This document shows, piece by piece, positions 14,382 to 57,799 of a DNA stretch of 64,000 bases. The position numbers and the translations under genes were made by a program. Position 1 is the first letter of the stretch; every line of letters begins with the position of its first letter. The DNA is from Candidatus Uhrbacteria bacterium CG10_big_fil_rev_8_21_14_0_10_50_16 (lineage in GTDB: Bacteria > Patescibacteriota > Patescibacteriia > UBA9934 > UBA11717). The notes under the pieces were generated by a model that ran no database searches, was not told where the DNA came from, and worked only from the letters and a program-made list of their open reading frames with translations. Where the stretch lies: contig PCYM01000010.1 in assembly GCA_002774875.1 (NCBI GenBank), positions 8,645-72,644 of the forward strand, given 5' to 3'.

Positions 14382-14457
14382 TGGTAGGCCCGGCAGGAAT
14401 CGAACCTGCAACCACAGAGGTATAAGCTCTGTGCTCTAACCGTTGAGCTACGGGCCC
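14382..14457 (-). tRNA. tRNA-Ile with anticodon UAU
   Basis: Reverse complement folds as GGGCCCG/CGGGCCT acceptor (Ile-like ends GGGCC...GGCCUACCA), anticodon stem CAGAG/CTCTG, loop CTTATAC, T-arm GCAGGTTCGATTCCTGC, CCA encoded. Confidence 0.7.
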
Positions 14458-23417: not shown

Positions 23418-24161
23418 ATGTATTGCTACATTTACGATGCAGAAGTGCAGGATCGAAAATACGAACGCGAATTGATCGCCATTGAACATCGTATTACGGA
23501 CCTGGGGTTGCAAGGAAAGATTGTTCGCCTTGCCTTGTTTAGAGACCCTGATGAGCAAATTCGCAAAGAGGTAGCGGCAGGTGCTAAAACTGTTGTGGTG
23601 ATTGGAAACGATCAAACGGTGCATCGCGTGCTAACGACGATTGTAGATGCAGGGGCGACGCTCGCCATTATTCCGGTAGGAGAACCAAATGTGCTCGCCA
23701 GAATTTTAGGAGTTCCAAAAGGTGTTCAAGCCTGTGATACGCTCTCTCAACGTATTATTGAGTCACTCGATGTCGGTAATATCAACGGTCAACGGTTTTT
23801 AACAGGTGTGCGATTTCCAAAAGCTATTACGCGAGTTCGATACGGAAAGGCCTATGATCTTGTGTCTAATAAGACAGGCCAATTAGAGATTTTAAATCTG
23901 TCTGTGGAGGCACCGTCTGGTGAGGCCGACATTGCCAATCCGATAGATGGAAAATTACAGGTGACGATTACAACACAAAAACGCAAAGGGTTTCGGTCTA
24001 TTCCGGCGGTTACGACCATCCCGTTTGAGGCATTTGAAGTGCTGTACGATACGTCTGTAAAAGCGGTGGCCGATGGGGTTGAGATAGAAGGGGATCGATT
24101 TAACGTCACTACGGAGCAAGGGGCATTGAACGTGGTTGTTTCTCGCGAGCGGATGTTTTAA
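23418..24161 (+). CDS. DAGK_cat-like (diacylglycerol/lipid kinase catalytic fold) protein with degenerate GGDGT motif
   Basis: VVVIGNDQTVHRV...LAIIPVGEPN resembles the GGDGT...PxGT(G)N pattern of YegS/BmrU lipid kinases, but it is short (247 aa). Tentative. Confidence 0.4.
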   Translation: MYCYIYDAEVQDRKYERELIAIEHRITDLGLQGKIVRLALFRDPDEQIRKEVAAGAKTVVVIGNDQTVHRVLTTIVDAGATLAIIPVGEPNVLARILGVPKGVQACDTLSQRIIESLDVGNINGQRFLTGVRFPKAITRVRYGKAYDLVSNKTGQLEILNLSVEAPSGEADIANPIDGKLQVTITTQKRKGFRSIPAVTTIPFEAFEVLYDTSVKAVADGVEIEGDRFNVTTEQGALNVVVSRERMF

Positions 24162-24197
24162 AAGATCTTGGCGGTCCAGGGTCTTTTTTTTGTTTCA

Positions 24198-24222
24198 CCT
24201 TCAAACACATGTATTTTGAGAA
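24198..24222. promoter_or_regulatory. Imperfect palindromic motif A (TTCAAACACATGTATTTTGAGAA), also at 35542
   Basis: Dyad TCAAACAC-n-RTTTTGA. The second copy at 35542-35566 is 22/25 identical. Confidence 0.35.
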
Positions 24223-24450
24223 TTGTGCTCGGTGCATTGCTTTAAATGATCCGCAAGGAGTCGTCGACATACTGGTACATTGCCTAAACATGCGAGAGAT
24301 TGGGTCGACGCCCAACACGGATTATTTATAAGCAACACATCTCGCTCCTGTATTGTCTGAATCCTTCGCTGACACGGTCTCTAACGTGGTATTCCATGCG
24401 AAGTGGGAATTTATCTACTCCTGTGGATAAAAGGGACAGGCACCTTTATC

Positions 24451-24538
24451 CGCAGGTCCTGTTCTCTCCAACGCGCACACCAACAAAAACCTCCCAGACA
24501 AGCTGAGAGTTTTTTGCTGGTGCGCGCTGGGGGATTCG
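24451..24538. repeat. Direct repeat copy 1 (88 bp, 100% identical to 24653-24740): tRNA-Val trailer/terminator plus 21-nt 3' fragment of tRNA-Val(UAC)
   Basis: Exact string match. Ends at ...GGGGGATTCG (mid T-loop) and then diverges. Confidence 0.85.
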
Positions 24539-24652
24539 CCTTCACCTCTCATGTTCTTCCGAAAATTCGGGTTCAGGTCCGGGCCTCGCCGTTGCGCTTC
24601 TCACCATTGTCAGCGCAACATGGCTCCGGCCGTTCGAATCCGTCGAACAGGA

Positions 24653-24740
24653 CGCAGGTCCTGTTCTCTCCAACGCGCACACCAACAAAAACCTCCCAGA
24701 CAAGCTGAGAGTTTTTTGCTGGTGCGCGCTGGGGGATTCG
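24653..24740. repeat. Direct repeat copy 2 (overlaps the 3' end of the intact tRNA-Val(UAC))
   Basis: Exact 88-bp identity with 24451-24538. Confidence 0.85.
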
Positions 24741-24796
24741 AACCCTCGACCCCCTCGGTGTAAACGAGGTGCTCTAACCAACTGAGCTAAGCGCGC
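24720..24796 (-). tRNA. tRNA-Val (anticodon UAC)
   Basis: Reverse complement: acceptor GCGCGCT/AGCGCGC, anticodon stem CCTCG/CGAGG, loop TTTACAC, T-arm GAGGGTTCGAATCCCCC, CCA. Confidence 0.85.
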
Positions 24797-24886
24797 AAGT
24801 GAATTGCGGAGCAAACGTACCATACTCGGTTTGGCTGGTCAAGATCGTTGACAGGCAAGACAAGACCTGGCATACTCTCATCGCCT

Positions 24887-24973
24887 GCGGACGTGGCGGA
24901 ATCGGTAGACGCGCCAGCTTGAGGGGCTGGTCTCTTTCGGGAGATGGAGGTTCAAGTCCTCTCGTCCGCACCA
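24887..24973 (+). tRNA. tRNA-Leu (anticodon GAG)
   Basis: Acceptor GCGGACG/CGTCCGC, anticodon stem CCAGC/GCTGG, loop TTGAGGG, long variable arm, T-arm GGAGGTTCAAGTCCTCT, CCA. Confidence 0.85.
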
Positions 24974-25010
24974 AAAAAAAATCTCAGCTTGCTGGGATTT
25001 TTTTTATAAG
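24974..25010 (+). terminator. Rho-independent terminator after tRNA-Leu(GAG)
   Basis: A-run, ATCTCAG-cttg-CTGGGAT hairpin, T8. Confidence 0.55.
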
Positions 25011-25141
25011 GACGATGAGGACTTGGACCCAGGGGATGGTAAGGGGAAACCCTTCCCCTTACTTGGTGGGGGTGACTGAGCATAGCGAAGACAAGAGGGG
25101 CGGAAGCCCCTATTGAGAGGAGCAAGGCGACGACGTGAAAT

Positions 25142-25159
25142 GTCCTCTCGTCCGCACCA
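25142..25159 (+). repeat. 18-nt duplicate of the tRNA-Leu(GAG) 3' end (GTCCTCTCGTCCGCACCA), 170 bp downstream of the gene
   Basis: Exact match to tRNA positions 24956-24973. Confidence 0.6.
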
Positions 25160-25269
25160 TCTTGTGTGATTCCTGACCGGATTCACAGGGGTTCAATGAA
25201 AACCGAGTCGTGTACTCGGTTTTTGTGTTCACGGATTTAAAGAGGAAATCGTGCTATACTCTCCGTACT

Positions 25270-25536
25270 ATGGCTTGGATATTACGCATTCTTTTGGGCG
25301 GCGCTGTGTCTGCATTGGGGTATTTTGCTATTTGGAAAGCGGAGGATGTTGTGGGATGGATTGGTGGTGAATCGTATTGGGCCGAGCAAAATTTTGGCGT
25401 GTGGGGTGGAACAAAGGGGCTGATTAAAATCGTCGGCATTGTGATTATGTTTGTAGGATTTGGGATTATGGTGCAGCTCCATACGGAAATCCTCTCATTT
25501 ATTACGGGTCTTGTGATTCCGGCAACACGAAAATAA
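25270..25536 (+). CDS. Small hypothetical membrane protein (about 88 aa, 3 TM)
   Basis: TGCTATACT -10 box 9 nt upstream of ATG 25270 (leaderless arrangement). The ORF track starts at 25210. Confidence 0.45.
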   Translation: MAWILRILLGGAVSALGYFAIWKAEDVVGWIGGESYWAEQNFGVWGGTKGLIKIVGIVIMFVGFGIMVQLHTEILSFITGLVIPATRK

Positions 25537-27929: not shown

Positions 27930-28820
27930 TCAGCTGAGTTGTGGCACAAACCCCGTGGGAACGCCCAGGTAGGCGTGATGGACACTGCCATGCATCACCT
28001 GGATTTCCGGCGCTTGATTCCTTCCTAGAATCATGAGCGTGGCCGGTTGCGACTTCAGAAGAGAGTTGTCGTTCCCTCCACAGATCATTCCCAGATCACC
28101 AAGCCTTGGCAACTGCGTTGGATGCGCAAGGAGCATGGCACCCACGCAAATGATGTCCAGAGGAAACTCGTCGGGTGCGCAGACCATCTTTGCACGCTGC
28201 GCAGAAGCGCCGGCAAACCGCTTTCCAAATTGGGCGGGGATGACCCAAATGCCACCGGCCTGTTGCTCTGCGATGTGCGCGAGACACTCCGCCGTGCGGT
28301 AGCTAATGGCAACGTCCAGCAGGACCCGGTTCGTACGCTTGTACCCAAAGGCGCAGAGAGCGCCAACCACGCGTCGCATACCGCGTAGGTAGCGTTCGGG
28401 TGCGTTGCCACGCGGACCTCCTGTGAGTCCGGCCAGACTGGGCACTGCAAACCATCCTTCGGCGCCTTCCGGCAGGGGTGCGCGACAGGTGCGTTCTACG
28501 TTGCTCATGGCAGGCTCCGGGCTTATGCCCAGACGTTCTGACAGGAGTGTGATCTGCACTCGAATTGGCTGAGGACCCGTGTAGAGACGGGGGTACCCTG
28601 CTTGTGACTGCACTGTCTCAAACGCGTACTGACTATCCATTGGGCGACAGGTATTTGCCCACGACATACTGCCTCCTATTCTCCTACATGTGTAAGGGAA
28701 CAGCTTTAGCTTTTCACAATGGGGTACAGCCGTCAATGGTGTTTTGAAATACGAGTTTACGAGTATTCTCAAAACGACTGTGTTTAAAGATGAGTGTATT
28801 CGACGAAGGAGTCCAGGCAA
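27930..28820 (-). CDS. Hypothetical protein in the high-GC island (longest ORF; true extent uncertain)
   Basis: ORF track only. High GC creates many overlapping ORFs; no motif recognised. Confidence 0.3.
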   Translation of the reverse strand: MPGLLRRIHSSLNTVVLRILVNSYFKTPLTAVPHCEKLKLFPYTCRRIGGSMSWANTCRPMDSQYAFETVQSQAGYPRLYTGPQPIRVQITLLSERLGISPEPAMSNVERTCRAPLPEGAEGWFAVPSLAGLTGGPRGNAPERYLRGMRRVVGALCAFGYKRTNRVLLDVAISYRTAECLAHIAEQQAGGIWVIPAQFGKRFAGASAQRAKMVCAPDEFPLDIICVGAMLLAHPTQLPRLGDLGMICGGNDNSLLKSQPATLMILGRNQAPEIQVMHGSVHHAYLGVPTGFVPQLS

Positions 28821-35502: not shown

Positions 35503-35541
35503 GTGGCGAAGACCTTGATTGCTTCGCCGAACTCGCTCATC

Positions 35542-35566
35542 TTCAAACACATGCGTTTTGAGAAGA
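35542..35566. promoter_or_regulatory. Motif A, copy 2 (CTTCAAACACATGCGTTTTGAGAA)
   Basis: Matches 24198-24222. Confidence 0.35.
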
Positions 35567-35583
35567 CTCCGTATCAACTCCAT

Positions 35584-35680
35584 CTTTCAAAACACACGTG
35601 TTCTTGGGGGTGAAGTCTAAATCAGATCAGGCCGAGAGCCATGACGGCCGAGATGATCAACAACATCATATAAGGAGTTA
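35584..35680 (+). repeat. Repeated intergenic element B, copy 2 (upstream of prfB)
   Basis: See 906-1000. Confidence 0.45.
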
Positions 35681-39213: not shown

Positions 39214-39888
39214 ATGGCAACTCCCTCCTCACAACAACCCAAGAAGGGTTGGGCGGCCTATGCTCTTGAGCAGAAGGTCGGTCTTGTTATTTTTGGTGTG
39301 ACGGGTGTGGTTGGACTTATTTTGAGCATGGTGTTTATTGTGCAGGGAATCCGAGCACCGTTTATTGTGAGTTATTCCGGGGATCGATTTACGACTACGA
39401 GCGAGCGCAACGCGGAGGAAATTCAAAAACAGAAGACCACAGATACAGATGGTGATGGCATTAACGATTACGATGAGTTGAACGTGTTTCGAACAAGCCC
39501 GTACTTGGCGGACTCCGACTCGGATGGCTTTGACGATAATCAAGAGATTAAAAGTGGTAACGACCCTAACTGTCCCGTGGATCAAAACTGCGGTCGCGCG
39601 TCCGATGCGGGTGTCAATAATCCGTTGATCGCCTCCGACCTGACCGATAAGCTTCCGTTTGAAGAATCTGGGTTGAATACGCAGATCAACGACGCGGGTG
39701 ATGTAGAGAACCTGCTGGGTCAACTGACAAATGACGATATTCGTGCGGCACTTTTGCAACAGGGAATCGATCAAACAACCATCGATGCGTTGAGTGACGC
39801 TGAGATTCGCGACCTGTTTAACTCGGCCCTACAAGAATTAGCAGCGAGTGGTGCAATCAATGACATCCTCAAACAAGCAAAACAATGA
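39214..39888 (+). CDS. Membrane-anchored protein with thrombospondin-type-3-like Ca-binding repeats (DTDGDGINDYDE, DSDSDGFDDNQE)
   Basis: One TM helix, then DxDxDG repeats. TGCTATACT -10 box upstream. Stop overlaps the start of the giant gene (CAATGAAA), suggesting translational coupling. Confidence 0.55.
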   Translation: MATPSSQQPKKGWAAYALEQKVGLVIFGVTGVVGLILSMVFIVQGIRAPFIVSYSGDRFTTTSERNAEEIQKQKTTDTDGDGINDYDELNVFRTSPYLADSDSDGFDDNQEIKSGNDPNCPVDQNCGRASDAGVNNPLIASDLTDKLPFEESGLNTQINDAGDVENLLGQLTNDDIRAALLQQGIDQTTIDALSDAEIRDLFNSALQELAASGAINDILKQAKQ

Positions 39889-42800
39889 AACGCGCACGTC
39901 ACATCTTTGAAAAGCTTTTCCTCGGATGGATGATCGGAGTTATGCTTGTAGCCTCTTCGTTTGCGGTTCCTCGCGCTGCGTTGGCGCAAGGATTGCCTGT
40001 TATCGACTCCTCGTTGCTTGGATTTAAGACGAAGGAAGAAATTGAGAAAGCGATTCTTAAACCACTGGGCGTGGCGTTGATTCAAATTCTTATTAACCTG
40101 GTTTCGTTCGTGGCAAACCGATTAGCCTACGACGCAGCGTTGGCGATTGCCTCGGGTGGTAAGGGACAAACGGCAAACTTTGAATATCGGAGTATTGAAG
40201 AATACGGACAAGATTTGTGGCAGTCTGTGTTAGGAGAATCTATTGGTCAGCTTTCCGAAGGGTTAGATATGGCGGGGGTGAATTTTGATGTTTGTGCGCC
40301 AACAAGCCCAATAAAGACATTGAATTTACAACTAGGGATAGCCGGTGGTGCACGACCAGAGCCGACCTGTGACTTTAGGGATATTCAATCCAACTGGGAA
40401 GGATTCGTGGCGACGTTGCAGGAGGATGCCGATCCAAACAGGATTTTTGATGAATTTGCGGCTTCTTTCGGTCAGGGTCAAACGGAATTGTCGGCGACAA
40501 TTAGTATTTTGTCTCAAACATACGCACAGGCGGCTCAGACGCAAGATATAAAAACCAGTGAACTCCTCGCAAACGATCGCTTTAAAGACGTGGAGGATTT
40601 TATTACGGGGAATGTCAAAACACCTTCCACTGTGTTGGAGGATCAGTTTAAGGGGAAGTTAGATGAGGCTCAGAACAATCAGACAGAGGCACTTAAGAGC
40701 GCCTTATTTGGAAACGAGGGAGCTTTGTTGCAAATTGGTGTGTCAGCGGGATCGGTATTCTTAAATACCTTGTTGAGCCAATTGACCAACAAGATTTACA
40801 CAGGATTGTTTGAACCGCCAACTACGGGAGGCGTGTTTAATCCAGACTTTATTAATATTCGTGGACGCGATCGGGCACGAGAGACGTTTAAGGGATTGCT
40901 CACGACGCCTATCCAAACGTTGGATCAGTACAACGTAGTAAACCAATTTGTCACGTGTCCCGGTGCTACAAATCGCGGTCCAAATAACTGTGTCATGGAC
41001 ACAAGTTTTGCGGCGATTATCTCGCGTTCGGAGGCGGGTGAGGGAATGACGATTCAGCAAGCGATTGACGCGGATTTGTTGCACGGTGGATGGCCGTTGG
41101 TCTCTTCTGCGCGAGCGGATTTAGATCAAGACGCATTTTGTTACACACAGGCATACTGTTATTCCAACCTCGTTAAGATGCGTGTCGCCCGTGTTATTCC
41201 GGTGGGTCTTGAGATCGCGGCCGACAAATCAGGGCAAGGAAACTTACCCGTGATTACGCTGCAACAGGCCGTGAACGCCTTTAACGATTGTAATTTTGAA
41301 AATCCCGACGCCTTGTTAGATGCGAATAATCCTTACTGTCACTTGGTGGATCCAAATTGGGTGATTAAGTATCCAGAAACGCAATGTCGCGCGCAAGTGT
41401 TTGGTCAAACATTAGTTGCGGAGAGCGCAAATGTTCGTGCCGAGACCTGTGTAGACACACCAAGTTGTATCTCTGAAGATGAGAATGGAAACTGTGTGGG
41501 TGGATATGGATACTGTACACGTGAGCGAAACGTGTGGCAGTTTGATGGAGATGTGTGTCCATCGCAATATGCAAGTTGTACAACGCTTACGAGTCGTACG
41601 GGTGAGAGAGATAGTTTGCTTACCAACACGGTTGATTTTGCCGGATGTAATGCCGACAATGCTGGTTGTGCATGGTATCGAACAGAACAACAGCGTAACG
41701 ACAACGACACACCCGCAGATCCAACGGATGATATATTTACATGGGGAACAGAAGTGCCAAACGACAATGGAACACCGGGCGATCCAACGGATGATTTTGT
41801 GGACATTACGGACACTAACCCTGCTGCCGCACCGAATGTATCTACAGTTCGAACCTATTTTAACGCGCAGACGCAGGCGTGTCGCGCAGCAGATGCAGGA
41901 TGTACCGATCTCGTACGCGCGTCGTCGTCCACATTAAACCCAGTGCTTAATGCGAGTTTTGAAGATGATGCAGATCAAAACAACGCTCCGGATCATTGGG
42001 ATTTGGGATCAGGATCGCAATATCGTACGTCTGGCTTGGATGCCGCTTTTGGGGGAGACGCTGTGTGGATTCCCGAAGGGGATGCGATTCTTACGCATGA
42101 ATCTGTTCATCTATCCGCAAATCAATTTGTAACCGTATCGTTTCATACACGCGGAGAGGCTTTGTTAAACACGAGTGTAGAATCTTTGTTGACGTTTGTG
42201 AACGCAAGTGGAGTTGGCGTTACACCAACAATCTTGTTGAATTCCCCAAACTGTACGTCGGGCGGAGGATCAGTCTTTTTTGAAGGAACGGCGGGAGATA
42301 CGTATGAACGATTCTCGTGTACGTTTACGACACCTTCTCTTGCGGACACGTGGATGACTATTCGACTCGAGGCAGTAGCAGGGGACGCCTATATTGATGG
42401 GGTGCAGGTGGACGAACAGGAGGTCACAACAAACTTCCATGTCGGGTACGGTTCCTCTTCAGAACGCGTAGATATTCGCGTAGCTCCAGACTATTTGGAA
42501 TGTACGGGTAATGCGACAGACGCAGAGATTTGTAATAATTATGCACCCGTGTGTCGCGCGTCGGAGGTGGGATGTACCGCCTACACACCAACAAACGGAG
42601 ACCCAACGGTGCCTGGAATCGTTAATTCTACTAATACGTGTCCGTCTGAGTGTGTAGGGTATGAGACCTATCGTCAGTTAGCATCTAACTTCTCTACAGC
42701 AGTTTTCCCAACCACCTTTATTGCCGATTCTGCACGGAGCTGTACCGCGGAGGCGGCGGGATGTTCTGAATTTACCAATCTTGACGCACTCGCAGAGGGT

Positions 42801-45800
42801 GGAGAGAGCCGTGAGTATTTTGTTGACGTGCGAGCGTGTCAGGAAGAGGCAGAGGCGGCAAATACGGGCGCGGTATATTACACATGGGAAGGATCCGATG
42901 TATCAGGATTTCAACTCCGTACATGGTCACTTAAACAATCCAATGCAGGAGATGCTCCTTGTACAGACTTTAATGCGGCCTCGGGCACGTGTGTTGATGC
43001 GTCAACGGCGGCCCCTGCGGGATGTAGCCAGCATGCGGATATCTTCCTTGACCCAGATTGTCGCGAGTTTTACGATGCGAGCGGCGACATTCATTATCGC
43101 TACTATTCGGATACCGTCACGGTGGACAACGCGTGTAGCCCTTATCGTAAGACCAACTCAACGCTTAACGATTGTCAGACAACGGGTGGCGTATGGAACG
43201 TCTCGGCGGGAAACTGTACGTATAACATCATGCCATCGGAAAGTACACAGTGTTCTGCAGCGGCAAACGGCTGTCGTGGATACACCGGAAACACCGGAAA
43301 CAATACACGCATCGTGTTACAAGAATATTTTGAGACAGGGAACTTGGGCAATTGGCCAGATGTTTCCGGTACGTCGTTATACAGTAATGAGTCCGTCGCG
43401 GCCGGTGGTCATTCGATGCTCGTTGGCAATGTGGTTGCGGCACAGCAAAGCGAAGGACAGATCTTTGCCGAGCGTGGTTACATCTTGTCTTTCTGGGCAA
43501 AAGGAAGTGGTACATTGCTTGCCAATTTTGTGGGGGCGACTGGTCCAAGCGTAAGTATGGTGCCAGGATTAACGTTGACCAACGGATGGCAGGAATACAC
43601 GTTTGGTCCTGTGACTCCAACGGGTGCCGGATTTGACGAGGCAACTGCGCGTTTAACGTTTGATCTCAACGGAACAGCAGCGTACGTGGATAATATTACA
43701 TTGCGAGAAGTACAAGACACGGCGTACCTCATTGAGAATAGCTGGGTTACTCCGTCCACGTGTGACCAGACGCCACAGGGCGTTGCGGCGCCACAGTTCT
43801 ACCTTGGTTGTCAGGAATACCGCACACATCGCGGAGAGACGGTAGACCTTACCTCATTTGCCTCAATTTGCCGTCAGGAGGCAATTGGTTGTGAAGGATT
43901 CTTTGATACGCAAAACTCTAATAGCCCGTATCCTCAGGCCTTTAATCTTACCTGTAGCGTGGGCGGATCGGTAACGGAGCCAACGCCTTGTTCGTTTGAT
44001 GGTAAGGACGTCTGTACTGTTTTCCCAGGTCAGGCAACGTGTAAGTTTCAGGCAAATGGAGTAGACGCGCCGTTTACGCTCGCGCCGTACTTGGCAGAAG
44101 ACACCGAGGTGGTCCCTCGCGACGAGAAGGTATTCCTCGTTGATCTACCACAGTATCGTTGTAGCGCACAGGCGGCAGGGTGTACGTTGTACGGCAGCCC
44201 AGACTTTAATATCGACAATACAGAAGTAACGGCCTACGCGAGCGTGGCATTGTTGAACGATCCAGACACCTATGGAGACACGTTGTGTGAGCAGGAAGAT
44301 TTATTCTGCGATGCGTATAGCTCGGACGGTGGCGCGCTGTTCTACTTTAAGAATCCTGGAAGTCAGAAATGTGAGTACAAGGAGTTGGTGACGATCGAGG
44401 GAACGGTGTATTCCGGTTGGTTCCGTGTAGGTGGAAGTGAGCCATGTTATTACGACGACCTCAACAATAATGGAGAATTTGATGCAGCAAGTGAGTTATC
44501 AGACAGCTACTTGATTGGCGGAACAGCGTTTGGCATTTGGCACAATGGGGATGCAGCAAACTACGATGGTTGGGCGGGAACTTGTCCTGCTGAGCAGAGT
44601 TCGTGTTCTGAGTTTGTGGATGTTGTGGACGTGGCCGATGGTCTCCATCCAAACGGTCGACCGTATTACTATTTGAACAATGACCGCATTAATCCTGCGG
44701 CAGATTCGGCGTCAGAATCGTGTAATGGCCTTATTTCGCAAGAGCAAGGTTGTGTTGGATTCAATAATAATGCAACACCGTTTGTGACGTTTAATGCGTC
44801 GGCAAGTTACATTAAGAGTTGGCACTCGGATACATTAGTGAATGCCGACAAGCGGTTTACGCCTGTGGATCCGGTGGATTGTAGCTCGGGAACGGGAGGC
44901 ATCTACACACTGCCAGACGGATCGACCATCGATTTGTGTCAAAGCTTCTGTGTGTATCCAACGCAAACAGGGTTTAGTGGCGATCTTCCGCAGTACAACG
45001 TGAGTGTAGAGGGATCGTGCGTGGTGGATCAGGATTGCGGAACGCGGACCGATACATTCGGGGCGGATCAACAAGGTTCTTGTTACAAGGCGTATGAGCC
45101 AAACCCAGATGCGTACCTCTGTTTGGGGGGTGGAGAGCATGGCGAGTTACACCAGAACAGTGGTTCTTGTGTAACAAGTCAGGCATTCTTTGTGCCGGGT
45201 CGTGTGCAGAGTATTTACGGAACTTCGCAACGACAGCCAAATGATGCGAATACTATTTTAAATGTGCGACGTGATCGACAATGTTCGGAATGGTTGGCCT
45301 GCGATAGTCAGACATCTGCGTGGGACGATGAGCAAGGAAAATTTGTGAATGTGTGTAACTCGGTCAGCTTGTGTAACGAGTATTCAGCCGTTGGAAGCCA
45401 GTCATTCTGCTCCAACTGGATTGAGGAGCCAATACGTGTGTTGGACGACGTAGAATACGCAAACCGTGATGTTACCTGGTATGGATCCGAATATTCTGGG
45501 TACTCAATTCCGGATCAGTATGCGGTTCAGGATTACAGTCAGATCAACATTAATCCGGAGAAGCTGTGTCAGAATTCTGTCAGCGGAAAAATCTATAATG
45601 TCTCGGGTGGTGTGACGGTTTATAATTCAGTGAGTGGTCAATGGGATAATGGTGTGCCTGCCTCCTGTGCGTCTACAAATAACTGTCTCGGATTTAGTGC
45701 GGATGCAATTTGTACGAGTGCGGACGAGGATTATCGGCTTGCCGTTACGCTGGGGCCATGTGTTACCGGAACGGCTAATGGAGCAAGTTGTTCTGTTGGT

Positions 45801-48800
45801 CAGTGTACCGATACGCTGCTTGCCTGTGCTTCTAATGCGGATTGCGGTACCGGTCCTGGAGTCTTCTGTAATCTTGCACCAACGGTAGCAGAATCCGGTC
45901 AGTGTTTTAATGGTCTTTGTGCAAGTTCTGTTGATGGAACGGATTTGGTAAACGCCACCAGACAAGAGTGTCGTGGATACCCGGAAAGTAACGCTCCATT
46001 CCCAAATGACATCGTAACAAACTGGACGGCACAGCGGGCGCTTGTTTTGCCAAACGATGGTCCATTAGAAGAACGTCCAACGGCGTTTAGGCCCGGTTTT
46101 GCCAATGCGACCTATTGTGCCAGCGGTGAGGCGTGTGATTGTTCCTATGTCACGGCCGAATACGGTGGAGGGGTGAAGAGTTTAAATTTGGCGAGAGGAA
46201 ATGGTGAAGGTGCGCTTCCGGGGGTCTGTGTTGGGGGAGAATTTGAGGGAAGCTCTTGTACGGGAGATAATCAATGTAGCAACACTTCCGGTGGAGGCGG
46301 AGGTATCTGTGAGTTTATTACCGCAAAGAACACCTTTATTGGGTGGCCGGGATTCTGTATCCAGAGTGATTTGAGCATCAACATTAACGCGAGCCAGGAT
46401 AAAAACGCGTGTTTGCTCTGGTTGCCGGTAGACCAGTTGCGTGGCGGAACAGATATCTATAATAAGTTTACCGAGGCGGGATTCTCTATTGCTAACACTA
46501 CGTACTGCACACAAAACAGCGTGTTTATTGACTTGGGCGTAACGGGTGCGCAGGATACAATTAGCAACGATGACATTAATGACACCATTGCGCCTGCGTG
46601 TGCCGCTTCCTTCCCACCAGATGCCACGGGCGTGCCAACACCTCCTATCGGATTTACGGATCCATTGGGTGCTTGGTTTGTGCAAATGGTGAATGCAACC
46701 GCAAACGGTGTTACAAGAAATGTTCCGGAAAACGCAAGCGGATCCGAGGCTGCGACCGGTGGATGTGACGCAGATGAATATAACTCGTGTTGGGCGAGTG
46801 TGGCGTGTCCAAAAAATTACTTTGCTGTGATTGGAGCCTGCGAGGCAGACGCCAACGTGTGTGGAAACTCGGCAGGGCCAGAAGGTGATGTGTTTGAGGA
46901 TTGTCCGTACTTCTGTGTGCCATATGGCTCAAAGTACGAGCTTCCGGTTGATGCAATCGGTGCGGTACCCGGAGACGTGTGTGCTCCGCCTGCCAACATG
47001 GTTGCCAATGGAATGACGGTGCCCATTAACTCAACGGCATTGGATCTTGGGTTGACGGACGAGGAAGAAATCTTTAGTAGAGCCACCTGGTCCGGAACTT
47101 CTGGCCCTGCATCTGAACAGGGCACAGACACGGCGTTTGGATACTTGGTAAACGACGAGGACTTCCAAGCTCTTGAGGACCGTTATGCAAGCTGCAGAGT
47201 ACGAGGATATGAGTGGAATGCGGACAGTCTTCTAGATAATTATTACGTCCCTTTGTGGCCTGTAGAAAGTTTAATGATCTCTGATCTGGAGCATAACTGG
47301 GAATATTATCTTGGATGCTCGGAGCTCGCCTTTACAAGCGTAGAGGCAGGGTACGGTAATCAGTCAGATACCGTTGGTAACGCGGCCTATACAAACCGTG
47401 CGTTGACGCCAAACCAGAATGTTGCTTGGCAATACACACTCAATGAAGCCGGAATGCCAAGTGCGTTGAGTTACAACAGCGCAACACAGCCGGATGATGT
47501 GGGACGTATTGTGCCAAGTTATGAGTTTACGGATGCGTCGCACATAACAATCAACGATCCAACACAGGCAGACTTTGCCGGTGCCACCGTGTTGGCATGT
47601 AACAACTCAAACCTCTCCCTGGAACCGCTCGCGGAGGGAAGTGCCTGCACCACGCTTACAGGAAACATTACAACGTCTGCCAGAAGTTACGATGATACAA
47701 GTTTCTCTTTGCCGTCTGCCTTAAATGGAGGTGAGTTTGATTGTGATATTGCGACGGATTGTCCAAACTACACAGCGCCAAGCGGAGGGCAGTGTTTAAC
47801 AGGTGTAAATAACTTTGCTTGTTTTGTTGGGTGTGATGAGGGGTCTATGCAAGCAAATGACATTGCAAATGCGTATATTGCAAGTGGATGGAACATAGCA
47901 GGTGCCAACAGTTGGTGTGCTTCGATGGAACTTGGATCCTGTGTGGCAGATATAAATAATTTATCTAATCAATTGGACTATACATGTCAGCGATATTATG
48001 GACATCCATTAAGCTCGATCGTTGGAGAGGCAAACCAAGCAGCTGCTCTTGGAACCTCACAAAATGTCTGTAACTCAGCCTCGGCAAACGGCACCTTCTT
48101 TGATTCGTCGACCTGGATGGCAGCAAACCCAACAGGTGATTGGGAGTCGTTCGTTTTCGCCACAGAACATCAGTGCGATATAAGTGGTGGAGATGCGATG
48201 TGTGATACGGATTCGCAGTGTGGAGGGTCGCCTGGAACGCTGTGTCTTAACAACACCTGTTCAATAGACCTCACATCGATTCCAAACGCGGATATTATTC
48301 CAATTAAAAATCCGGGTTCTACGCCGGCGCAGGTGTTAGGTCGTCTGAAGCAATTCTTTGCACGCGTGTATTCCTTCTGGGAGTATGACGATGAAACAGC
48401 AACGATTGCCCGTTCAACCAATAATGCCGATGCGCCAGTTACGGTTGGAGGAACAGGTGTGTATGAAAAAATTGGACTCGGACCTTTCTCTGCCGCCGAT
48501 CTTGATGATCGGCAAGACGGAGATGCAAACGGCACGGGACCAAACAATGGAACGCCAACATCTCCACAAGTGGCGAGCGTGACGGATAATTGCGTAGGGA
48601 CGAATTGTGTGGAAGGTGAAACGGGAACATTTAGTGTCAACGGTAGCGCGGGACGTATTTGGAACGCGCAACGGAGCTTCTTGGCAAACATTGAGTTCTA
48701 TGCCTTTACTGATCCAAACCAATATCCATTAAAGAATGTGATTGTGGATTGGGGAGATGGGCAGGAGACAGGTTGGGGAGCATCGCTGAGTATTCCAAAT

Positions 48801-49361
48801 TCGCTCGCCAATGTTTGGGGGCGTGGTGATGAGGTGGGGTCTACAACGGATGACAATTATTACAAAGCCCACCGTGGGTTGAACGCGAGCCAACAGCAAA
48901 TTTGTGTGCCTCCATCCGGGGAGGAAGAATGGGGCAAGACGTCCGATAGTTGTCAAAGCGGACCGTTCCAATTCCAACATAATTACCGTTGTACACCGGG
49001 GATGTTTAACTGGCTCCAGGTCGCTGGGCGTGAGTGTCATTATGTAACGGGCACAAACATCTTAGAAAACTCGCCGTGTTATGAGCCGGGTGGGGATGTG
49101 TGTATCTTCCAACCGCGGGTGTACGTAAAAGATAACTGGGATTACTGTACGGGTGTGTGTACGATTGGGCCGAATGGCAATTCTACGTGTCAGGGGTCTG
49201 TATTGTTACCTTTTTCGCCGGTTGATTTAATAGCAGAGTGTAATCAAAATATTTGGCCTCGCACAGAATTAGATGACCCAGGGTATCCAAATGGCAGTTA
49301 TAATAATCCTTGGATCAACTGGGATGGCAACATCCGTATAACACCTACCAATAACTTGTAA
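39885..49361 (+). CDS. Giant secreted cysteine-rich protein (3158 aa): signal peptide, about 330-aa Cys-poor helical N-terminal region, then about 2800 aa rich in C/G/T/S/D/N
   Basis: Single uninterrupted ORF of 9.5 kb. Signal peptide MKRARHIFEKLFLGWMIGVMLVASSFAVPRAALAQG. Very many Cys residues spread over the length, with no obvious tandem repeat. One internal segment resembles a carbohydrate-binding/jelly-roll module. Confidence 0.85.
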   Translation: MKRARHIFEKLFLGWMIGVMLVASSFAVPRAALAQGLPVIDSSLLGFKTKEEIEKAILKPLGVALIQILINLVSFVANRLAYDAALAIASGGKGQTANFEYRSIEEYGQDLWQSVLGESIGQLSEGLDMAGVNFDVCAPTSPIKTLNLQLGIAGGARPEPTCDFRDIQSNWEGFVATLQEDADPNRIFDEFAASFGQGQTELSATISILSQTYAQAAQTQDIKTSELLANDRFKDVEDFITGNVKTPSTVLEDQFKGKLDEAQNNQTEALKSALFGNEGALLQIGVSAGSVFLNTLLSQLTNKIYTGLFEPPTTGGVFNPDFINIRGRDRARETFKGLLTTPIQTLDQYNVVNQFVTCPGATNRGPNNCVMDTSFAAIISRSEAGEGMTIQQAIDADLLHGGWPLVSSARADLDQDAFCYTQAYCYSNLVKMRVARVIPVGLEIAADKSGQGNLPVITLQQAVNAFNDCNFENPDALLDANNPYCHLVDPNWVIKYPETQCRAQVFGQTLVAESANVRAETCVDTPSCISEDENGNCVGGYGYCTRERNVWQFDGDVCPSQYASCTTLTSRTGERDSLLTNTVDFAGCNADNAGCAWYRTEQQRNDNDTPADPTDDIFTWGTEVPNDNGTPGDPTDDFVDITDTNPAAAPNVSTVRTYFNAQTQACRAADAGCTDLVRASSSTLNPVLNASFEDDADQNNAPDHWDLGSGSQYRTSGLDAAFGGDAVWIPEGDAILTHESVHLSANQFVTVSFHTRGEALLNTSVESLLTFVNASGVGVTPTILLNSPNCTSGGGSVFFEGTAGDTYERFSCTFTTPSLADTWMTIRLEAVAGDAYIDGVQVDEQEVTTNFHVGYGSSSERVDIRVAPDYLECTGNATDAEICNNYAPVCRASEVGCTAYTPTNGDPTVPGIVNSTNTCPSECVGYETYRQLASNFSTAVFPTTFIADSARSCTAEAAGCSEFTNLDALAEGGESREYFVDVRACQEEAEAANTGAVYYTWEGSDVSGFQLRTWSLKQSNAGDAPCTDFNAASGTCVDASTAAPAGCSQHADIFLDPDCREFYDASGDIHYRYYSDTVTVDNACSPYRKTNSTLNDCQTTGGVWNVSAGNCTYNIMPSESTQCSAAANGCRGYTGNTGNNTRIVLQEYFETGNLGNWPDVSGTSLYSNESVAAGGHSMLVGNVVAAQQSEGQIFAERGYILSFWAKGSGTLLANFVGATGPSVSMVPGLTLTNGWQEYTFGPVTPTGAGFDEATARLTFDLNGTAAYVDNITLREVQDTAYLIENSWVTPSTCDQTPQGVAAPQFYLGCQEYRTHRGETVDLTSFASICRQEAIGCEGFFDTQNSNSPYPQAFNLTCSVGGSVTEPTPCSFDGKDVCTVFPGQATCKFQANGVDAPFTLAPYLAEDTEVVPRDEKVFLVDLPQYRCSAQAAGCTLYGSPDFNIDNTEVTAYASVALLNDPDTYGDTLCEQEDLFCDAYSSDGGALFYFKNPGSQKCEYKELVTIEGTVYSGWFRVGGSEPCYYDDLNNNGEFDAASELSDSYLIGGTAFGIWHNGDAANYDGWAGTCPAEQSSCSEFVDVVDVADGLHPNGRPYYYLNNDRINPAADSASESCNGLISQEQGCVGFNNNATPFVTFNASASYIKSWHSDTLVNADKRFTPVDPVDCSSGTGGIYTLPDGSTIDLCQSFCVYPTQTGFSGDLPQYNVSVEGSCVVDQDCGTRTDTFGADQQGSCYKAYEPNPDAYLCLGGGEHGELHQNSGSCVTSQAFFVPGRVQSIYGTSQRQPNDANTILNVRRDRQCSEWLACDSQTSAWDDEQGKFVNVCNSVSLCNEYSAVGSQSFCSNWIEEPIRVLDDVEYANRDVTWYGSEYSGYSIPDQYAVQDYSQININPEKLCQNSVSGKIYNVSGGVTVYNSVSGQWDNGVPASCASTNNCLGFSADAICTSADEDYRLAVTLGPCVTGTANGASCSVGQCTDTLLACASNADCGTGPGVFCNLAPTVAESGQCFNGLCASSVDGTDLVNATRQECRGYPESNAPFPNDIVTNWTAQRALVLPNDGPLEERPTAFRPGFANATYCASGEACDCSYVTAEYGGGVKSLNLARGNGEGALPGVCVGGEFEGSSCTGDNQCSNTSGGGGGICEFITAKNTFIGWPGFCIQSDLSININASQDKNACLLWLPVDQLRGGTDIYNKFTEAGFSIANTTYCTQNSVFIDLGVTGAQDTISNDDINDTIAPACAASFPPDATGVPTPPIGFTDPLGAWFVQMVNATANGVTRNVPENASGSEAATGGCDADEYNSCWASVACPKNYFAVIGACEADANVCGNSAGPEGDVFEDCPYFCVPYGSKYELPVDAIGAVPGDVCAPPANMVANGMTVPINSTALDLGLTDEEEIFSRATWSGTSGPASEQGTDTAFGYLVNDEDFQALEDRYASCRVRGYEWNADSLLDNYYVPLWPVESLMISDLEHNWEYYLGCSELAFTSVEAGYGNQSDTVGNAAYTNRALTPNQNVAWQYTLNEAGMPSALSYNSATQPDDVGRIVPSYEFTDASHITINDPTQADFAGATVLACNNSNLSLEPLAEGSACTTLTGNITTSARSYDDTSFSLPSALNGGEFDCDIATDCPNYTAPSGGQCLTGVNNFACFVGCDEGSMQANDIANAYIASGWNIAGANSWCASMELGSCVADINNLSNQLDYTCQRYYGHPLSSIVGEANQAAALGTSQNVCNSASANGTFFDSSTWMAANPTGDWESFVFATEHQCDISGGDAMCDTDSQCGGSPGTLCLNNTCSIDLTSIPNADIIPIKNPGSTPAQVLGRLKQFFARVYSFWEYDDETATIARSTNNADAPVTVGGTGVYEKIGLGPFSAADLDDRQDGDANGTGPNNGTPTSPQVASVTDNCVGTNCVEGETGTFSVNGSAGRIWNAQRSFLANIEFYAFTDPNQYPLKNVIVDWGDGQETGWGASLSIPNSLANVWGRGDEVGSTTDDNYYKAHRGLNASQQQICVPPSGEEEWGKTSDSCQSGPFQFQHNYRCTPGMFNWLQVAGRECHYVTGTNILENSPCYEPGGDVCIFQPRVYVKDNWDYCTGVCTIGPNGNSTCQGSVLLPFSPVDLIAECNQNIWPRTELDDPGYPNGSYNNPWINWDGNIRITPTNNL

Positions 49362-52441: not shown

Positions 52442-52552
52442 CGTAGCACTTGGTACGATCGATTTTGTTCGGTCGTGCCAAGCTTCAATTTGTGGATAGC
52501 CGGCTCACATCTCTTAGCGGTGCGTGCTATACTGGAGCTAATTACAAGGCAC

Positions 52553-55327
52553 ATGCTTAATTGGTTTCAACGTTCTAAACAAGTAATTCTGCGCGTTACA
52601 ACATCCCTCTCTGTTGTTGCGTTGTTTCTGTTTGTAGCACCGTCTGTTCACGCGGGTAGTTTATCCGATGCGTGGAATGATCCAGGATTATTTCTGGCAC
52701 GCATGATTGCCTATCTCATTGATAATTTGGGAGAGGTTATTGCGAGTCTCGCGACGTTGGAGCTCAAGATTCTGCAACCGATTTTGCAGTACAGCGATTT
52801 TATTAGCCACCCTGTTGTAGTAATGGGATGGGAGATTGTGCGGAACCTTACAAATACGGCGCTCATTGTCTTTATGTTGATCATTGCTTTTGGCACCATG
52901 TTTGGGGTCAAAAAGGTTAACTGGCAACAACAGATTCCAAAGTTACTAATTGCCGCCATTGCCATAAACTACAGCCGCATCATTACAGGTTTGTTCATTG
53001 ATATTGGTCAGGTAGTGATGAATGCATTCGTCAACGCACTCCAACAGGTAGGATTTGCCAACTTTTTTGAGATGCTCAAAATTCGAGAGGCCTACCAGCT
53101 TTCAGACCATCCTACGGGATTGGCAGAAGCGGGTACAGCGTTGACGTTATTGGGAACATCAATTTTTGCGCTCGTTCAAATTATTATTGTTGTGATTGTG
53201 TTGGGTGTAATGATTGCTGTTTTGTTGTACCGCGTTGTGGTTCTGTGGGTACTGATTGTGTTGTCGCCGGCCGCCTTTGGGGCGCGTGCAGCCGATGGGA
53301 TGCTTTCCAAGGCGGGAAATTATTACAGTGAATGGTGGGGTAAACTCACGGCGGCGGTGATGATTGGGCCGATTTTGGCGTTTTTTTTGTGGTTGTCTTT
53401 GGCGGCAACGGGAGCGAGCGATAAAGGATTGGCGGCAAACTTCGACACGTCTCTTGCAGAAGAAAACCAAGGAATTATCCAAAATAAGTCTTCTAATACA
53501 TCGCATTTACTCGCGTATGTGATTGGTATTGCGCTTTTGCTTGCTGGATTGGAGATGGCAAGTGGTACGGCGGGGCAGTTGGGAGGGTTCGCGGCCAAGG
53601 CGGTGAGCACCGGGTCCGGGTGGTCCAAAAAATTCGCCGCGGCACCTGTGTCGCTTGCGGGTGCGGCAACGGCCAAGACCGCACGTTTTGGTGGGCGGCA
53701 AGTCAAAAAAGTCGGTCGTTCCGGGGTTGAGTTGGCAACAGATCAAGTAAAGGGTCGAACGGCCGATTTTCGTCAATACACGCGTAAACGACTGGATCGT
53801 TTTGCCGATCGCTCTATTTTGGGTGGTGGTCTTGTAGGGGGAGCTATCGGACGACGCGCACGGGGAGTTTCTAGAAAAATGGGTAGTATGGACGATGCAG
53901 ATCGTAAACGCTTTCAGCAAGAAGAAGCCGGGTTTGGAGCAGACCTTTCCTTGGAGGAAAGTATGCGTTATCTGGAGGAAAACAGAGATTCAGGAAGTGC
54001 GCGCACACAAGCGCGAGTGGCACAACTACGTGGTTCTGTTGCATCTAACAAGGATCACATGAACACATTGCTTCAGGGTACGCCGGCACAGGCTGGACAG
54101 GCACGCCAAATGGTCAAAGATTCCATGCAACACTTTAAGGACACGGGTGATGATGCTTCTGTAAAGAAACTTGAGGATCGCATGAAGCAAGATTTGCGTC
54201 TTGGCAATGTAGATGCAAGTGGTATGAGTAGCGCCATGGAGAAGATGACAGACCGAGAGCTAAAAGGTCTATCAGAAGACAACTTTTCCGATGCAAACTT
54301 CCGTCAGGCAATGGCAAGTTCCGGTATGTTAAATCGATTCTTTGGTGGTACAGCGGACGAAAATGCGCGCAATCAGCAAGGATACTCTCGTTCCTTTATT
54401 CAGGGAGCGACGCGCGCAAATGCAAACCGGGCCCTGGACGGAGCGGAGACAACGCGTAATCAGGATGAACAAGACAGAATTGCCGCATTGGCACCGGCCG
54501 CTGCACGTGAGATTCCGCAACAGAGCAACAATACAGCGCATCGTCTTATGAATGCCCATTCTGCAGGAACGATGGGCAATACATTGTCTGCCGGTCTTAA
54601 TTTGCAGGATATTGATCTTGCAGAAATGCGTGCTGCGGGCGGAGGAACACTAGACCCTGTATTTGAAAATAGACTTATCGATGCAATACATGAGGCAATG
54701 ACATCCAGTAAGTCCGTTCCAATGGTTCAAGGATTGATGGAGGCAAGCCGCAACGCGGGTGCACCGCAGGAGCAGGCGCGTGCTCGGGAAATGATTAACT
54801 TTATGAGTGGAGCAAACGTTGCAGGATTGGACATTGGAACAGAAATTGATGCCGATGTTGCTAGCGGTGCTATTACCGGTGGTTCAGCGAGTGCTGTTCG
54901 TGCCCATCGAGCATTGCGAAACGGAGCTGTAGGATTTGGAGACATGGATCAATACGGTTTTGATGCTGCACGTCCACCCGCTAACCAGTTTGGTAATGAA
55001 ACAAATCGTCGCGAGTTTAGAACTGCGATTGCAACCAATCCATCCATCATTACAAACATTAACAACCGTATAACGGCAAACGGTGGGAATAATGACGTAG
55101 CTCGATCTGTAGCGCAGACCTTTGACAAACAAGCGCTTAATGGATTGCTAGAGAGTTTTGAAAAGGCGCGTGGAGGTCCACAAGAGGAAATGTATCGAGG
55201 AATTATTCAACAGGTTGGACAGGTGTTACAAAACCAGAGCCAGCTCATTGCCGAGGGCGATGAGATTTACGATCAAGTACAGCAAGCACAGCAACACTTT
55301 AGAACGCGTATTCGTACGCAACTATAA
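52553..55327 (+). CDS. VirB6/TrbL-like polytopic membrane protein with long hydrophilic C-terminal extension (Gram-positive T4SS channel component analogue)
   Basis: Signal peptide MLNWFQRSKQVILRVTTSLSVVALFLFVAPSVHAGS, then about 6 TM helices over about 300 aa, then about 550 hydrophilic aa. Architecture of VirB6-like proteins (ConG/Orf15/TcpH type). The ORF track starts at 52475. Confidence 0.55.
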   Translation: MLNWFQRSKQVILRVTTSLSVVALFLFVAPSVHAGSLSDAWNDPGLFLARMIAYLIDNLGEVIASLATLELKILQPILQYSDFISHPVVVMGWEIVRNLTNTALIVFMLIIAFGTMFGVKKVNWQQQIPKLLIAAIAINYSRIITGLFIDIGQVVMNAFVNALQQVGFANFFEMLKIREAYQLSDHPTGLAEAGTALTLLGTSIFALVQIIIVVIVLGVMIAVLLYRVVVLWVLIVLSPAAFGARAADGMLSKAGNYYSEWWGKLTAAVMIGPILAFFLWLSLAATGASDKGLAANFDTSLAEENQGIIQNKSSNTSHLLAYVIGIALLLAGLEMASGTAGQLGGFAAKAVSTGSGWSKKFAAAPVSLAGAATAKTARFGGRQVKKVGRSGVELATDQVKGRTADFRQYTRKRLDRFADRSILGGGLVGGAIGRRARGVSRKMGSMDDADRKRFQQEEAGFGADLSLEESMRYLEENRDSGSARTQARVAQLRGSVASNKDHMNTLLQGTPAQAGQARQMVKDSMQHFKDTGDDASVKKLEDRMKQDLRLGNVDASGMSSAMEKMTDRELKGLSEDNFSDANFRQAMASSGMLNRFFGGTADENARNQQGYSRSFIQGATRANANRALDGAETTRNQDEQDRIAALAPAAAREIPQQSNNTAHRLMNAHSAGTMGNTLSAGLNLQDIDLAEMRAAGGGTLDPVFENRLIDAIHEAMTSSKSVPMVQGLMEASRNAGAPQEQARAREMINFMSGANVAGLDIGTEIDADVASGAITGGSASAVRAHRALRNGAVGFGDMDQYGFDAARPPANQFGNETNRREFRTAIATNPSIITNINNRITANGGNNDVARSVAQTFDKQALNGLLESFEKARGGPQEEMYRGIIQQVGQVLQNQSQLIAEGDEIYDQVQQAQQHFRTRIRTQL

Positions 55328-55329
55328 CT

Positions 55330-57279: not shown

Positions 57280-57344
57280 CTGTTGACAAAAATACGTGCA
57301 CCGTTTCTGTCACGCGTCTTACACTAATCTGTTATACTGTACCC

Positions 57345-57797: not shown

Positions 57798-57799
57798 GT

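Follow-up and report, generated by a model that had tools for sequence, protein, structure and literature searches.

Duplicated tRNA 3' ends in a Candidatus Uhrbacteria genome flank small structured elements that may home to T-loops

A stretch of 64,000 nucleotides (nt) from contig PCYM01000010.1 of Candidatus Uhrbacteria bacterium CG10_big_fil_rev_8_21_14_0_10_50_16, here called the window, carries transfer RNA (tRNA) genes that are followed by duplicates of their own 3' ends. With moderate confidence, these repeats are interpreted as the footprints of small non-autonomous elements without a protein of their own, which home to the T-loops of tRNA and transfer-messenger RNA (tmRNA) genes and keep the gene intact. 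Two related families are found in the window: family A behind tRNA-Val and tRNA-Ser, and family B behind tRNA-Leu, with a fragment of family B behind tRNA-Arg. The element is about 100-150 nt long. It consists of a P0 hairpin (family A only), an antisense stretch, a core of about 80-90 nt (family A) or 112 nt (family B) with two hairpins on a junction, and a sense copy of the tRNA 3' part. We infer its mobility from the distribution of the copies, from empty sites in relatives and from one presence/absence polymorphism.

The Val locus has the following organization.

24720-24796, minus strand: tRNA-Val(UAC), intact (ARAGORN; Rfam tRNA, 68.5 bits), with the T-arm GTTCGAATCC
24653-24740, minus strand: proximal copy of the 88-nt repeat, composed of tRNA-Val nt 56-76, a trailer of 44 nt and 23 nt from the start of the family A element
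24693-24711, minus strand: terminator-like hairpin in the trailer of the proximal repeat
24517-24675, minus strand: family A element (covariance model, 120.6 bits; fold; covariation)
24645-24666, minus strand: P0 hairpin of the element, with the loop CUGC
24632-24641, minus strand: antisense stretch, or "guide", GGATTCGAAC
24539-24631, minus strand: three-way-junction core, followed by the distal tRNA-Val 3' copy
24451-24538, minus strand: distal copy of the 88-nt repeat, composed of the 3' 21 nt of tRNA-Val, the terminator and the first 23 nt of the element

The direct repeat had been reported in an earlier note on this DNA. A repeat finder recovered it as exact, with its copies at 24451-24538 and 24653-24740 spaced 202 nt apart, and ARAGORN and Rfam agreed with the note's tRNA-Val(UAC) and tRNA-Leu(GAG) calls. 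When read on the tRNA-Val strand, each copy starts at C56 of the T-loop with the last 21 nt of the tRNA, CGAATCCCCCAGCGCGCACCA, passes through a terminator-like hairpin and continues for about 23 further nt. The note had described the repeat as the last 21 nt of tRNA-Val plus its terminator. Both are present, but the repeat also extends 23 nt into the element, through its 5' motif and the 5' arm and loop of P0. The Val tandem thus comprises one full 202-bp unit and, as the distal copy, a second unit that is cut off in the P0 loop. Simple target-site duplication was rejected as the sole source of the repeat for the same reason. No decayed remainder of the second element past 24451 was detected with the family A covariance model over 24100-25300.

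Contigs L001 and L003 were found through a public-assembly look-up of the flanking DAGK-like gene. L001, an independent assembly from a different sample, has the same 202-bp duplication, and its distal copy carries two substitutions (window 24513 T>C and 24531 G>A) that are absent from its proximal copy. This answers the concern, raised in the earlier note, that the repeat might collapse on reassembly. In L003, 24538 is fused to 24741 to give a single copy, and the contig ends exactly 127 nt past the last unique base. The collapsed form in L003 and the breaks of several contigs in or near the repeat might be taken as signs of an assembly artefact or of a chance tandem duplication. However, the copy-specific substitutions of L001 and the recurrence of the same architecture at the tRNA-Ser of the window and at more than 15 other loci make such an origin extremely improbable. 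The 127-nt end suggests that L003 is a k=127 unitig ending where two real paths merge, and that both forms co-exist in the sample. Taken together, the two-copy assembly of L001 and the end of L003 indicate that the tandem is real and probably unstable and polymorphic in the population. Several other, independent contigs of this species end at 24326 (L002, L005) or at 24510 (L004), 3 nt before the 24513 variant, which suggests further strain variation beyond the distal repeat.

The second family A element of the window follows tRNA-Ser.

62181-62268, minus strand: tRNA-Ser(UGA), intact (ARAGORN), followed by a terminator-like hairpin at 62154-62171
61994-62141, minus strand: family A element (covariance model, 120.3 bits)
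62112-62133, minus strand: P0 of the element
62098-62107, minus strand: guide
62016-62097, minus strand: core
62000-62015, minus strand: distal 16-nt copy of the tRNA-Ser 3' part, CGAATCCCACTCTCTC

The distal tRNA-Ser copy, which the earlier note had missed, came to light when k-mers from the 3' ends of all tRNAs were searched for in the window. It adjoins the native bidirectional terminator (61970-61987) common to the convergent gene. Alignment on the tRNA strand showed that the DNA downstream of tRNA-Val and tRNA-Ser is homologous, with a common layout of terminator, 9-bp hairpin, 23-nt identical block CGACGGATTCGAACGGCCGGAGC, variable hairpin, GCGAGGCCYGGAC, second hairpin and tRNA 3' copy. 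The arms of the 9-bp hairpin differ yet stay complementary (GAACAGGAC/GUCCUGUUC versus GCACAUGCC/GGCAUGUGC). The motif CTCCGGCCGTTCGAATCCGTCG occurs twice in the window, at 24624 and 62090, the chance expectation for a shared 22-mer being 0.01; the earlier note had both copies, with coordinates that were off by 2.

Family A is not confined to this genome. A genome-collection scan with the 18-mer GGATTCGAACGGCCGGAG gave 49 matches, 12 of which are true homologues; these are in Saccharibacteria, Paceibacterota, Yanofsky-, Kaiser- and Uhrbacteria, one Bdellovibrionales metagenome-assembled genome (MAG) and two MAGs titled Gammaproteobacteria. A metagenome scan contributed ten further loci, several of them duplicates. 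The covariance model, built from 14 copies, recovered 17 distinct copies, among them the two in the window and a divergent one behind tRNA-Leu(UAA) in L018. Every family A copy is situated just 3' of a tRNA or tmRNA gene and on the same strand, and the upstream gene is always intact. The copies found by scanning lie 8-205 nt 3' of the tRNA and are followed by that tRNA's own 3' part, starting from the T-loop. The targets comprise at least 10 tRNA species and tmRNA in several phyla, always with a cognate 3' copy; in L015 and L020 the target is tmRNA, the sole Rfam family at threshold there. The sense copies begin at C56 in family A, at A58 in a Saccharibacteria subtype and at G59 in family B.

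Three loci have additional features. In L033 the family A copy is separated from tRNA-Ser by a third element type (1679-1880), which starts with the T-arm-complementary GGGATTCGAAGAATCCC and ends with a 15-nt fragment of the tRNA-Ser 3' end, showing that elements of different types pile up behind a single tRNA. In L022 (4288-4533), tRNA-Ser and the element are separated by a 238-nt spacer, a long palindrome whose start lies in the tRNA 3' end (CTCCGCCA...) and whose end is the complement of that start (...TGGCGGAG). In two Saccharibacteria (L015 3908-5262 versus L020 2162-2202), tmRNA and element are 96% identical and the distal tmRNA fragment differs; directly after this fragment is a 1.35-kb indel containing two genes, neither of which is a recombinase.

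The fold of the element was predicted with RNAalifold and consists of P0, a closing helix, P2 and P3, with changes on both sides in 20 of the 30 pairs. Pairing between the antisense stretch and the sense copy closes a three-way junction: at both Val and Ser, GGAUUCG is paired with CGAAUCC of the tRNA copy. In the model-based alignment 89.6% of cells are paired, compared with 68% in shuffles (none of 500 reached the observed value) and with 30-41% in controls in which the partners were slid. G.T pairs outnumber A.C pairs (21 versus 8, p=0.024), which favours the tRNA-sense strand as the one that folds, whether in RNA or in single-stranded DNA. Selection acts on the fold of that strand. The stems are variable and the junction nucleotides almost invariant, although in the copies recovered with the 18-mer they are invariant by construction. 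Nearly all family A copies have a G immediately before the junction.

Strong covariation and a near-invariant junction, subject to the same reservation about the 18-mer-recovered copies, would also be expected of a resident functional RNA gene. Such an RNA could be a tRNA-minihelix mimic, a regulator of tRNA 3' processing or a guide RNA for a TnpB/Cas12k-like or other effector acting in trans, the repeats having arisen by template switching between T-loop and closing helix. The constant orientation relative to the tRNA and the location of repeat edges in hairpins, which fits polymerase stalling or RNA ends, agree with this possibility, and a scaffold with a 16-21-nt target-identical tail recalls the guide RNAs of TnpB and Cas12. 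However, close relatives lack the element at the same tRNAs, and across genomes it is found behind different tRNAs as a mosaic of common hairpins (the P0 of the window Ser element matches the P0 of the Ala element in L042). A terminator-like hairpin usually separates the tRNA from the element, no effector gene was found in the window or in the neighbourhoods of the copies, and the bases of the putative guide are taken up by the closing helix. A purely resident RNA is thus considered distinctly unlikely, although a role as an RNA is compatible with mobility.

The homing interpretation draws in part on the match between antisense stretch and target. The T-arm GTTCGAATCC has its exact reverse complement in the conserved GGATTCGAAC, which therefore covers both sides of the junction in the uninterrupted target, GTT|CGAATCC, with AAC pairing to G53-U55 and GGAUUCG to C56-C62. 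Complementarity to both sides of the insertion point is also a property of the guides of introns in groups I and II. The element-bearing loci contain 39 tRNAs. Of the 19 with GTTCGAATCC, 15 lie upstream of an element as its nearest neighbour, whereas none of the 20 with other T-loops has an element with the canonical stretch (p=1.5e-7). Another tRNA of the window with GTTCGAATCC is tRNA-Ser(GCU) at 62515-62605. A different T-loop, TTCGACT, is found ahead of a single element, that of tRNA-Leu(UAA) in L018, whose guide, GGGTGAGAGTCGAAC, is complementary to the T-arm of this tRNA. The guides are 10-15 nt long in family A (in L022 all 15 of 15 positions match), 20 nt in the Leu element of family B and 24 nt in the Arg element; all are cognate, and all antisense stretches end at the complement of G53.

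Family B is found on the opposite strand of the window, at the following positions.

24887-24973, plus strand: tRNA-Leu(GAG), intact (ARAGORN, Rfam), with the T-arm GTTCAAGTCC and a promoter-like site at 24848-24876
24974-25005, plus strand: A-tract/U-tract hairpin after tRNA-Leu, terminator-like by eye and absent from the pattern-scan list
25010-25029, plus strand: family B antisense stretch GGACGATGAGGACTTGGACC, complementary to tRNA-Leu nt 53-72
25030-25141, plus strand: family B core, with hairpins at 25038-25063 and 25096-25111 (fold)
25142-25159, plus strand: distal sense copy of tRNA-Leu nt 59-76, up to CCA
63235-63311, plus strand: tRNA-Arg(GCG)
63346-63385, plus strand: partial family B-like element after tRNA-Arg(GCG), composed of a 24-nt antisense copy (63346-63369) and CAGGGGATGGTAAGG

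The distal tRNA-Leu copy is exact over 18 nt, as the earlier note had stated, and is followed by a T, the same base that follows tRNA-Leu in relatives. The inverted T-arm copy that the note placed at 25014-25030 exists but is larger: positions 25010-25029 are complementary to tRNA-Leu nt 53-72 at 19 of 20 positions, with one bulge and one G.U pair. The Arg antisense copy corresponds to the tRNA-Arg 3' end, and the rest of that element is missing. A second motif reported for both loci is exact at 25020, but the copy at 63361 lacks one C; what is common to both is the 16-nt CCAGGGGATGGTAAGG, at 25029-25044 and 63369-63384. By direct reading, CUGA...UGAGAGGNGNAAGG is common to the family B core and the family A 3' region, before the junction. 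The family A model fails to detect family B over the interval 24100-25300, and no more family B copies were present in all the fetched loci. The antisense stretch of family B mirrors the tRNA 3' end across a terminator-like hairpin, which suggests fold-back synthesis. The Val trailer hairpins (24693-24711 and 24491-24509, minus strand) are homologous to the Leu hairpin (24974-25005, plus strand), so that they form inverted repeats; these could be mediators of inversion in relatives, or a module carried by both elements.

Related Uhrbacteria loci were fetched through the DAGK neighbour gene. In L077 (86% identity), L079, L080, L081 and L083, tRNA-Val(UAC) and/or tRNA-Leu(GAG) is followed directly by a terminator without an element, and the same arrangement is seen for tRNA-Val in L082. 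The elements are thus extra DNA relative to orthologous empty sites. Because the distal Ser and Leu copies also lie at the native flank, the inserted DNA is what lies between the T-loop of the intact gene and the point at which the distal copy begins. Its length is about 185 nt for Ser, 186 nt for Leu and 202 nt for Val, the inserted unit being about 150-200 nt in simple cases. The earlier note had proposed that duplicated 3' ends mark the insertion of foreign DNA and had pointed to orthologous loci as the place to look; the empty tRNA-Val and tRNA-Leu sites of six relatives and the breakpoint in the T-loop bear this out. Its further claim, that no cargo remains and that the repeats may be mere scars, is not supported, since the segment between the repeats is a conserved structured element whose antisense stretch covaries with the T-loop.

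The same comparison showed that the tRNA-Val/tRNA-Leu locus is a rearrangement hot spot. The divergent tRNA pair is flipped as a unit in some relatives, with the flanking terminators staying in place (L080 4075-4328, L081 3845-4098 and L083 2922-3145 were compared with window 24720-24973, L079 and L082). In L075/L076, whose neighbour gene is 94% identical, the pair is absent and the downstream synteny differs. One assembly of a relative has a deletion, between two AAACC repeats, that removes the terminator along with the 3' half of tRNA-Val(UAC) (L078 3770-3790 versus L079 3735-3815).

The left edge of the repeat is fixed in the T-loop, and the right edge varies. It is located at or within 2 nt of CCA in L042, L019, L061, L068, L070, L018-Leu and window Leu, and past CCA in L018-Ser (+7), L043 (+37), L033 (+64) and window Val (+67). 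Overall, the repeat ends at or near CCA in about eight copies and runs 7-67 nt into the trailer in five or six. Direct repeats that reach the locus-specific trailer measure 28 nt in L018, 58 nt in L043, 83 nt in L033 and 88 nt at window Val. The +37 edge of L043 falls right after the terminator U-tract and right before P0, and L031 has a copy of the terminator. In L033 the repeat stops within the first 12 nt of a different element, the one after the tRNA. Duplication by a simple staggered cut fits L043 and the short cases, but not window Val or L033. The latter two repeats look like a second unit truncated at a hairpin, which could have arisen by tandem insertion and deletion, by template switching primed at the distal copy, or by copying of a transcript that ended in a hairpin loop.

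Mature tRNA, with its post-transcriptional CCA, is not supported as the source of the sense copies because the copies in L015, L020 and L033 carry the non-CCA trailer of the gene. The distal copy in L023 (1455-1500) reads ...CTCCGCCA, although its tRNA-Ser gene has no encoded CCA (...CTCCGC|AATATC). This extra CCA, seen only in L023, is possibly a hint of an RNA-derived copy, but may also be a 1-in-16 coincidence.

The partial direct repeat of the tRNA 3' part bounds the inserted DNA and the tRNA is reconstituted, as at the att sites of integrases. Integrases are known to use the T-loop as a sublocation in tRNA and tmRNA genes. The elements could thus be minimal integrative units, either attP-only circles or deletion remnants of islands, comparable to cis-mobilizable elements. 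They would carry their own tRNA 3' part and terminator, and a tyrosine or serine integrase with its gene elsewhere would move them, the native 3' end being pushed downstream. A breakpoint in the T-loop of both tRNA and tmRNA genes accords with this classical integration. So does the order of the parts, in which a terminator-like hairpin that is not native comes after the proximal 3' part and the distal copy meets the native flank (Ser, Leu). Serial units behind one tRNA in L033 and a single-copy allele in L003, compatible with excision, are likewise in agreement. On the other hand, the window has no integrase, and no common protein and no larger version of the element were found near the copies. 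One core is combined with the cognate 3' parts of at least ten tRNAs and tmRNA, whereas a carried 3' part would make hybrid, defective tRNAs. The repeats extend into the locus-specific trailer, and covarying hairpins with conserved loops and a tailored antisense stretch are foreign to the double-stranded arms of an attP. Uniform size, covarying hairpins and tRNA-specific tailoring are also not what would be expected of integrase-borne islands after random deletion. Transport by an integrase is regarded as rather unlikely.

In the homing mechanism that we favour, the antisense stretch would recognize T-loops of the GTT|CGAATCC type through base pairing, and the 3' end of the element would be joined to position 56 of the T-loop. 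The 3' part of the target, sometimes with its trailer, would then be re-synthesized, so that the gene remains whole. Pairing and re-synthesis are invoked because a fixed, carried 3' end would give defective hybrid tRNAs whenever the target is switched, yet all copies are cognate. The enzyme may be host-encoded or encoded elsewhere in the genome. A bolder version, which we hold to be rather unlikely, treats the element as a mobile nucleic acid that guides itself. Any T-loop could then be selected through pairing with the antisense stretch, the 3'-terminal G of the element would become linked to position 56, either autocatalytically or with the help of a ubiquitous enzyme of the host, and the 3' part would again be re-synthesized. 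Such an insertion system would need no protein of its own, would be programmable and would spare the tRNA, which would set it apart from introns, IS elements, integrase islands and CRISPR/OMEGA systems.

Partner proteins were sought by Pfam scans of about 38 open reading frames (ORFs) in the window. Apart from the PrgI/TraC-like/VirB4-like genes, these gave only housekeeping genes, among them RNase J, UvrA, aminoacyl-tRNA synthetases, NusA, YidC, GroEL and RF, and no recombinase, reverse transcriptase or transposase; the earlier note's statement that no integrase is present thus holds for the 64-kb window. All-against-all clustering of ORFs found no protein family that recurs near the copies, apart from spurious ORFs overlapping the element and syntenic housekeeping genes. 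TnpB, Cas12k and Tn7-like genes were found neither among the window ORFs by Pfam nor near the copies by clustering, and no larger version of the element was seen.

The element was also compared with known families. With Rfam 15, only tRNAs exceed the gathering threshold in the window, and lowering the threshold to E<=10 over 24400-25250 adds nothing over the element. There was no Rfam match to a group I or II ribozyme core at E<=10, and the tRNA is uninterrupted; nor was there a match to an omega, re or tracr RNA scaffold, few of which are in Rfam. In viral contigs, the family A 18-mer had no matches and the family B 16-mer had six, all in unrelated contexts. Phage and plasmid collections gave no meaningful BLAST match to the element, and no description of such an element was found in the literature. 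Likeness to a hammerhead, a k-turn or a bulge-helix-bulge intron was considered by eye and rejected, as the consensus cores fail to match. The family is therefore not previously described as far as Rfam and the literature were searched, and is classed as tRNA-targeting mobile DNA.

Several known systems share some of its properties. Tyrosine-integrase islands, prophages and cis-mobilizable elements likewise use the 3' half of tRNA and tmRNA genes with a breakpoint in the T-loop, leave an intact gene and a partial copy at the far end, and pile up serially. They differ from the present units of about 150-200 nt, which have no integrase or cargo but have a covarying core, tailored antisense, many cognate tRNAs and a repeat that often reaches the trailer. 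The P1/P10 guides of group I introns and the exon- and intron-binding sites (EBS/IBS) of group II introns resemble the antisense stretch in that a short stretch on the 5' side is complementary across the insertion point and changes with the target. However, the core of the element is far smaller than that of mobile introns and has no Rfam match, the gene is uninterrupted and needs no splicing, and no reverse transcriptase or homing endonuclease is apparent from the sequence.

The attP(+) of CTX phage and integron attC sites are alike in having two inverted, target-like half-sites, about 85-110 nt apart, that pair and mimic the target. They also keep their structure while the sequence varies, and permit very small non-coding units. 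The likeness was drawn for the forked-hairpin geometry alone: the target is neither dif nor attI, the element has a three-way junction rather than a simple bulged hairpin, and by direct reading its GTTCGAA does not match the attC R-box consensus GTTRRRY. The guide RNAs of TnpB and Cas12 and the short tRNA-homing CRISPR RNA of type V-K CRISPR-associated transposons resemble the element, in which a structured scaffold precedes a 16-21-nt 3' segment identical to the tRNA gene, starting at the T-loop. The GGTT or TTCAA that precedes the genomic target of the element may likewise be compared with these systems. Unlike in those systems, no effector genes were found in the window or near the copies, and the segment is paired with the element's own 5' stretch. 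Miniature inverted-repeat transposable elements (MITEs) are also small, non-coding, multi-copy, highly structured and dependent on a factor in trans. In the present element, however, the inverted stretches are derived from the target and vary with it, and fixed terminal inverted repeats belonging to the element itself are lacking. The flanking duplication is 16-88 nt long with one fixed edge, and site and orientation specificity are strict.

A number of observations weigh against the homing interpretation. Neither an autonomous partner nor an enzyme was identified in the window or around the copies, and the origin of the tailored 15-24-nt antisense stretches is not accounted for. Where the right edge of the repeat lies inside the 5' part of the element (window Val, L033) it follows no simple rule, and tandem units with deletion or template switching are needed to explain it. 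At Ser and Leu, the terminator-like hairpin next to the intact tRNA would fit equally well a unit that carries its own tRNA 3' end, as in integrase-type insertion. The presence/absence polymorphism equally fits recombinational deletion. Family B is known from one full and one partial copy, and the taxa given for L022, L043 and L052 come from record titles alone.

Some other features of the window were recorded. A tRNA-Ile with the anticodon UAU is located at 14382-14457 on the minus strand; this is unusual, as bacteria normally use for tRNA-Ile a CAU anticodon modified to lysidine. Another family of short interspersed repeats, of the TTCAAACA...TTTTGAGAA type, has intergenic units of about 110-140 nt at 35514-35626, 28760-28808, 899-957 and 24195-24222, with several copies in the 94%-related genome (L075/L076 3900-4520). 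Upstream of ComF and the tRNA-Ser pair are an ORF of 3158 amino acids (39885-49361) and a cluster of genes for PrgI, a TraC-like protein and a VirB4/TraG-like ATPase (52475-60542).

Even under the conservative reading, in which the elements are substrates of an integrase acting in trans, they constitute a new searchable RNA or DNA motif that is not in Rfam. If the homing interpretation is correct, they would be a new type among the few nucleic-acid-guided mobile elements, and a compact, retargetable guide-plus-scaffold directed at a universally conserved sequence would be of interest to genome engineers. They would account for many of the orphan tRNA fragments in the genomes of uncultivated bacteria, which confound the annotation of tRNAs and islands. 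They would also mark recombination hot spots, the present tRNA pair being flipped or lost in close relatives. The tRNA genes of streamlined symbionts would then be hosts to widespread structured elements of about 100 nt that read their target by base pairing.

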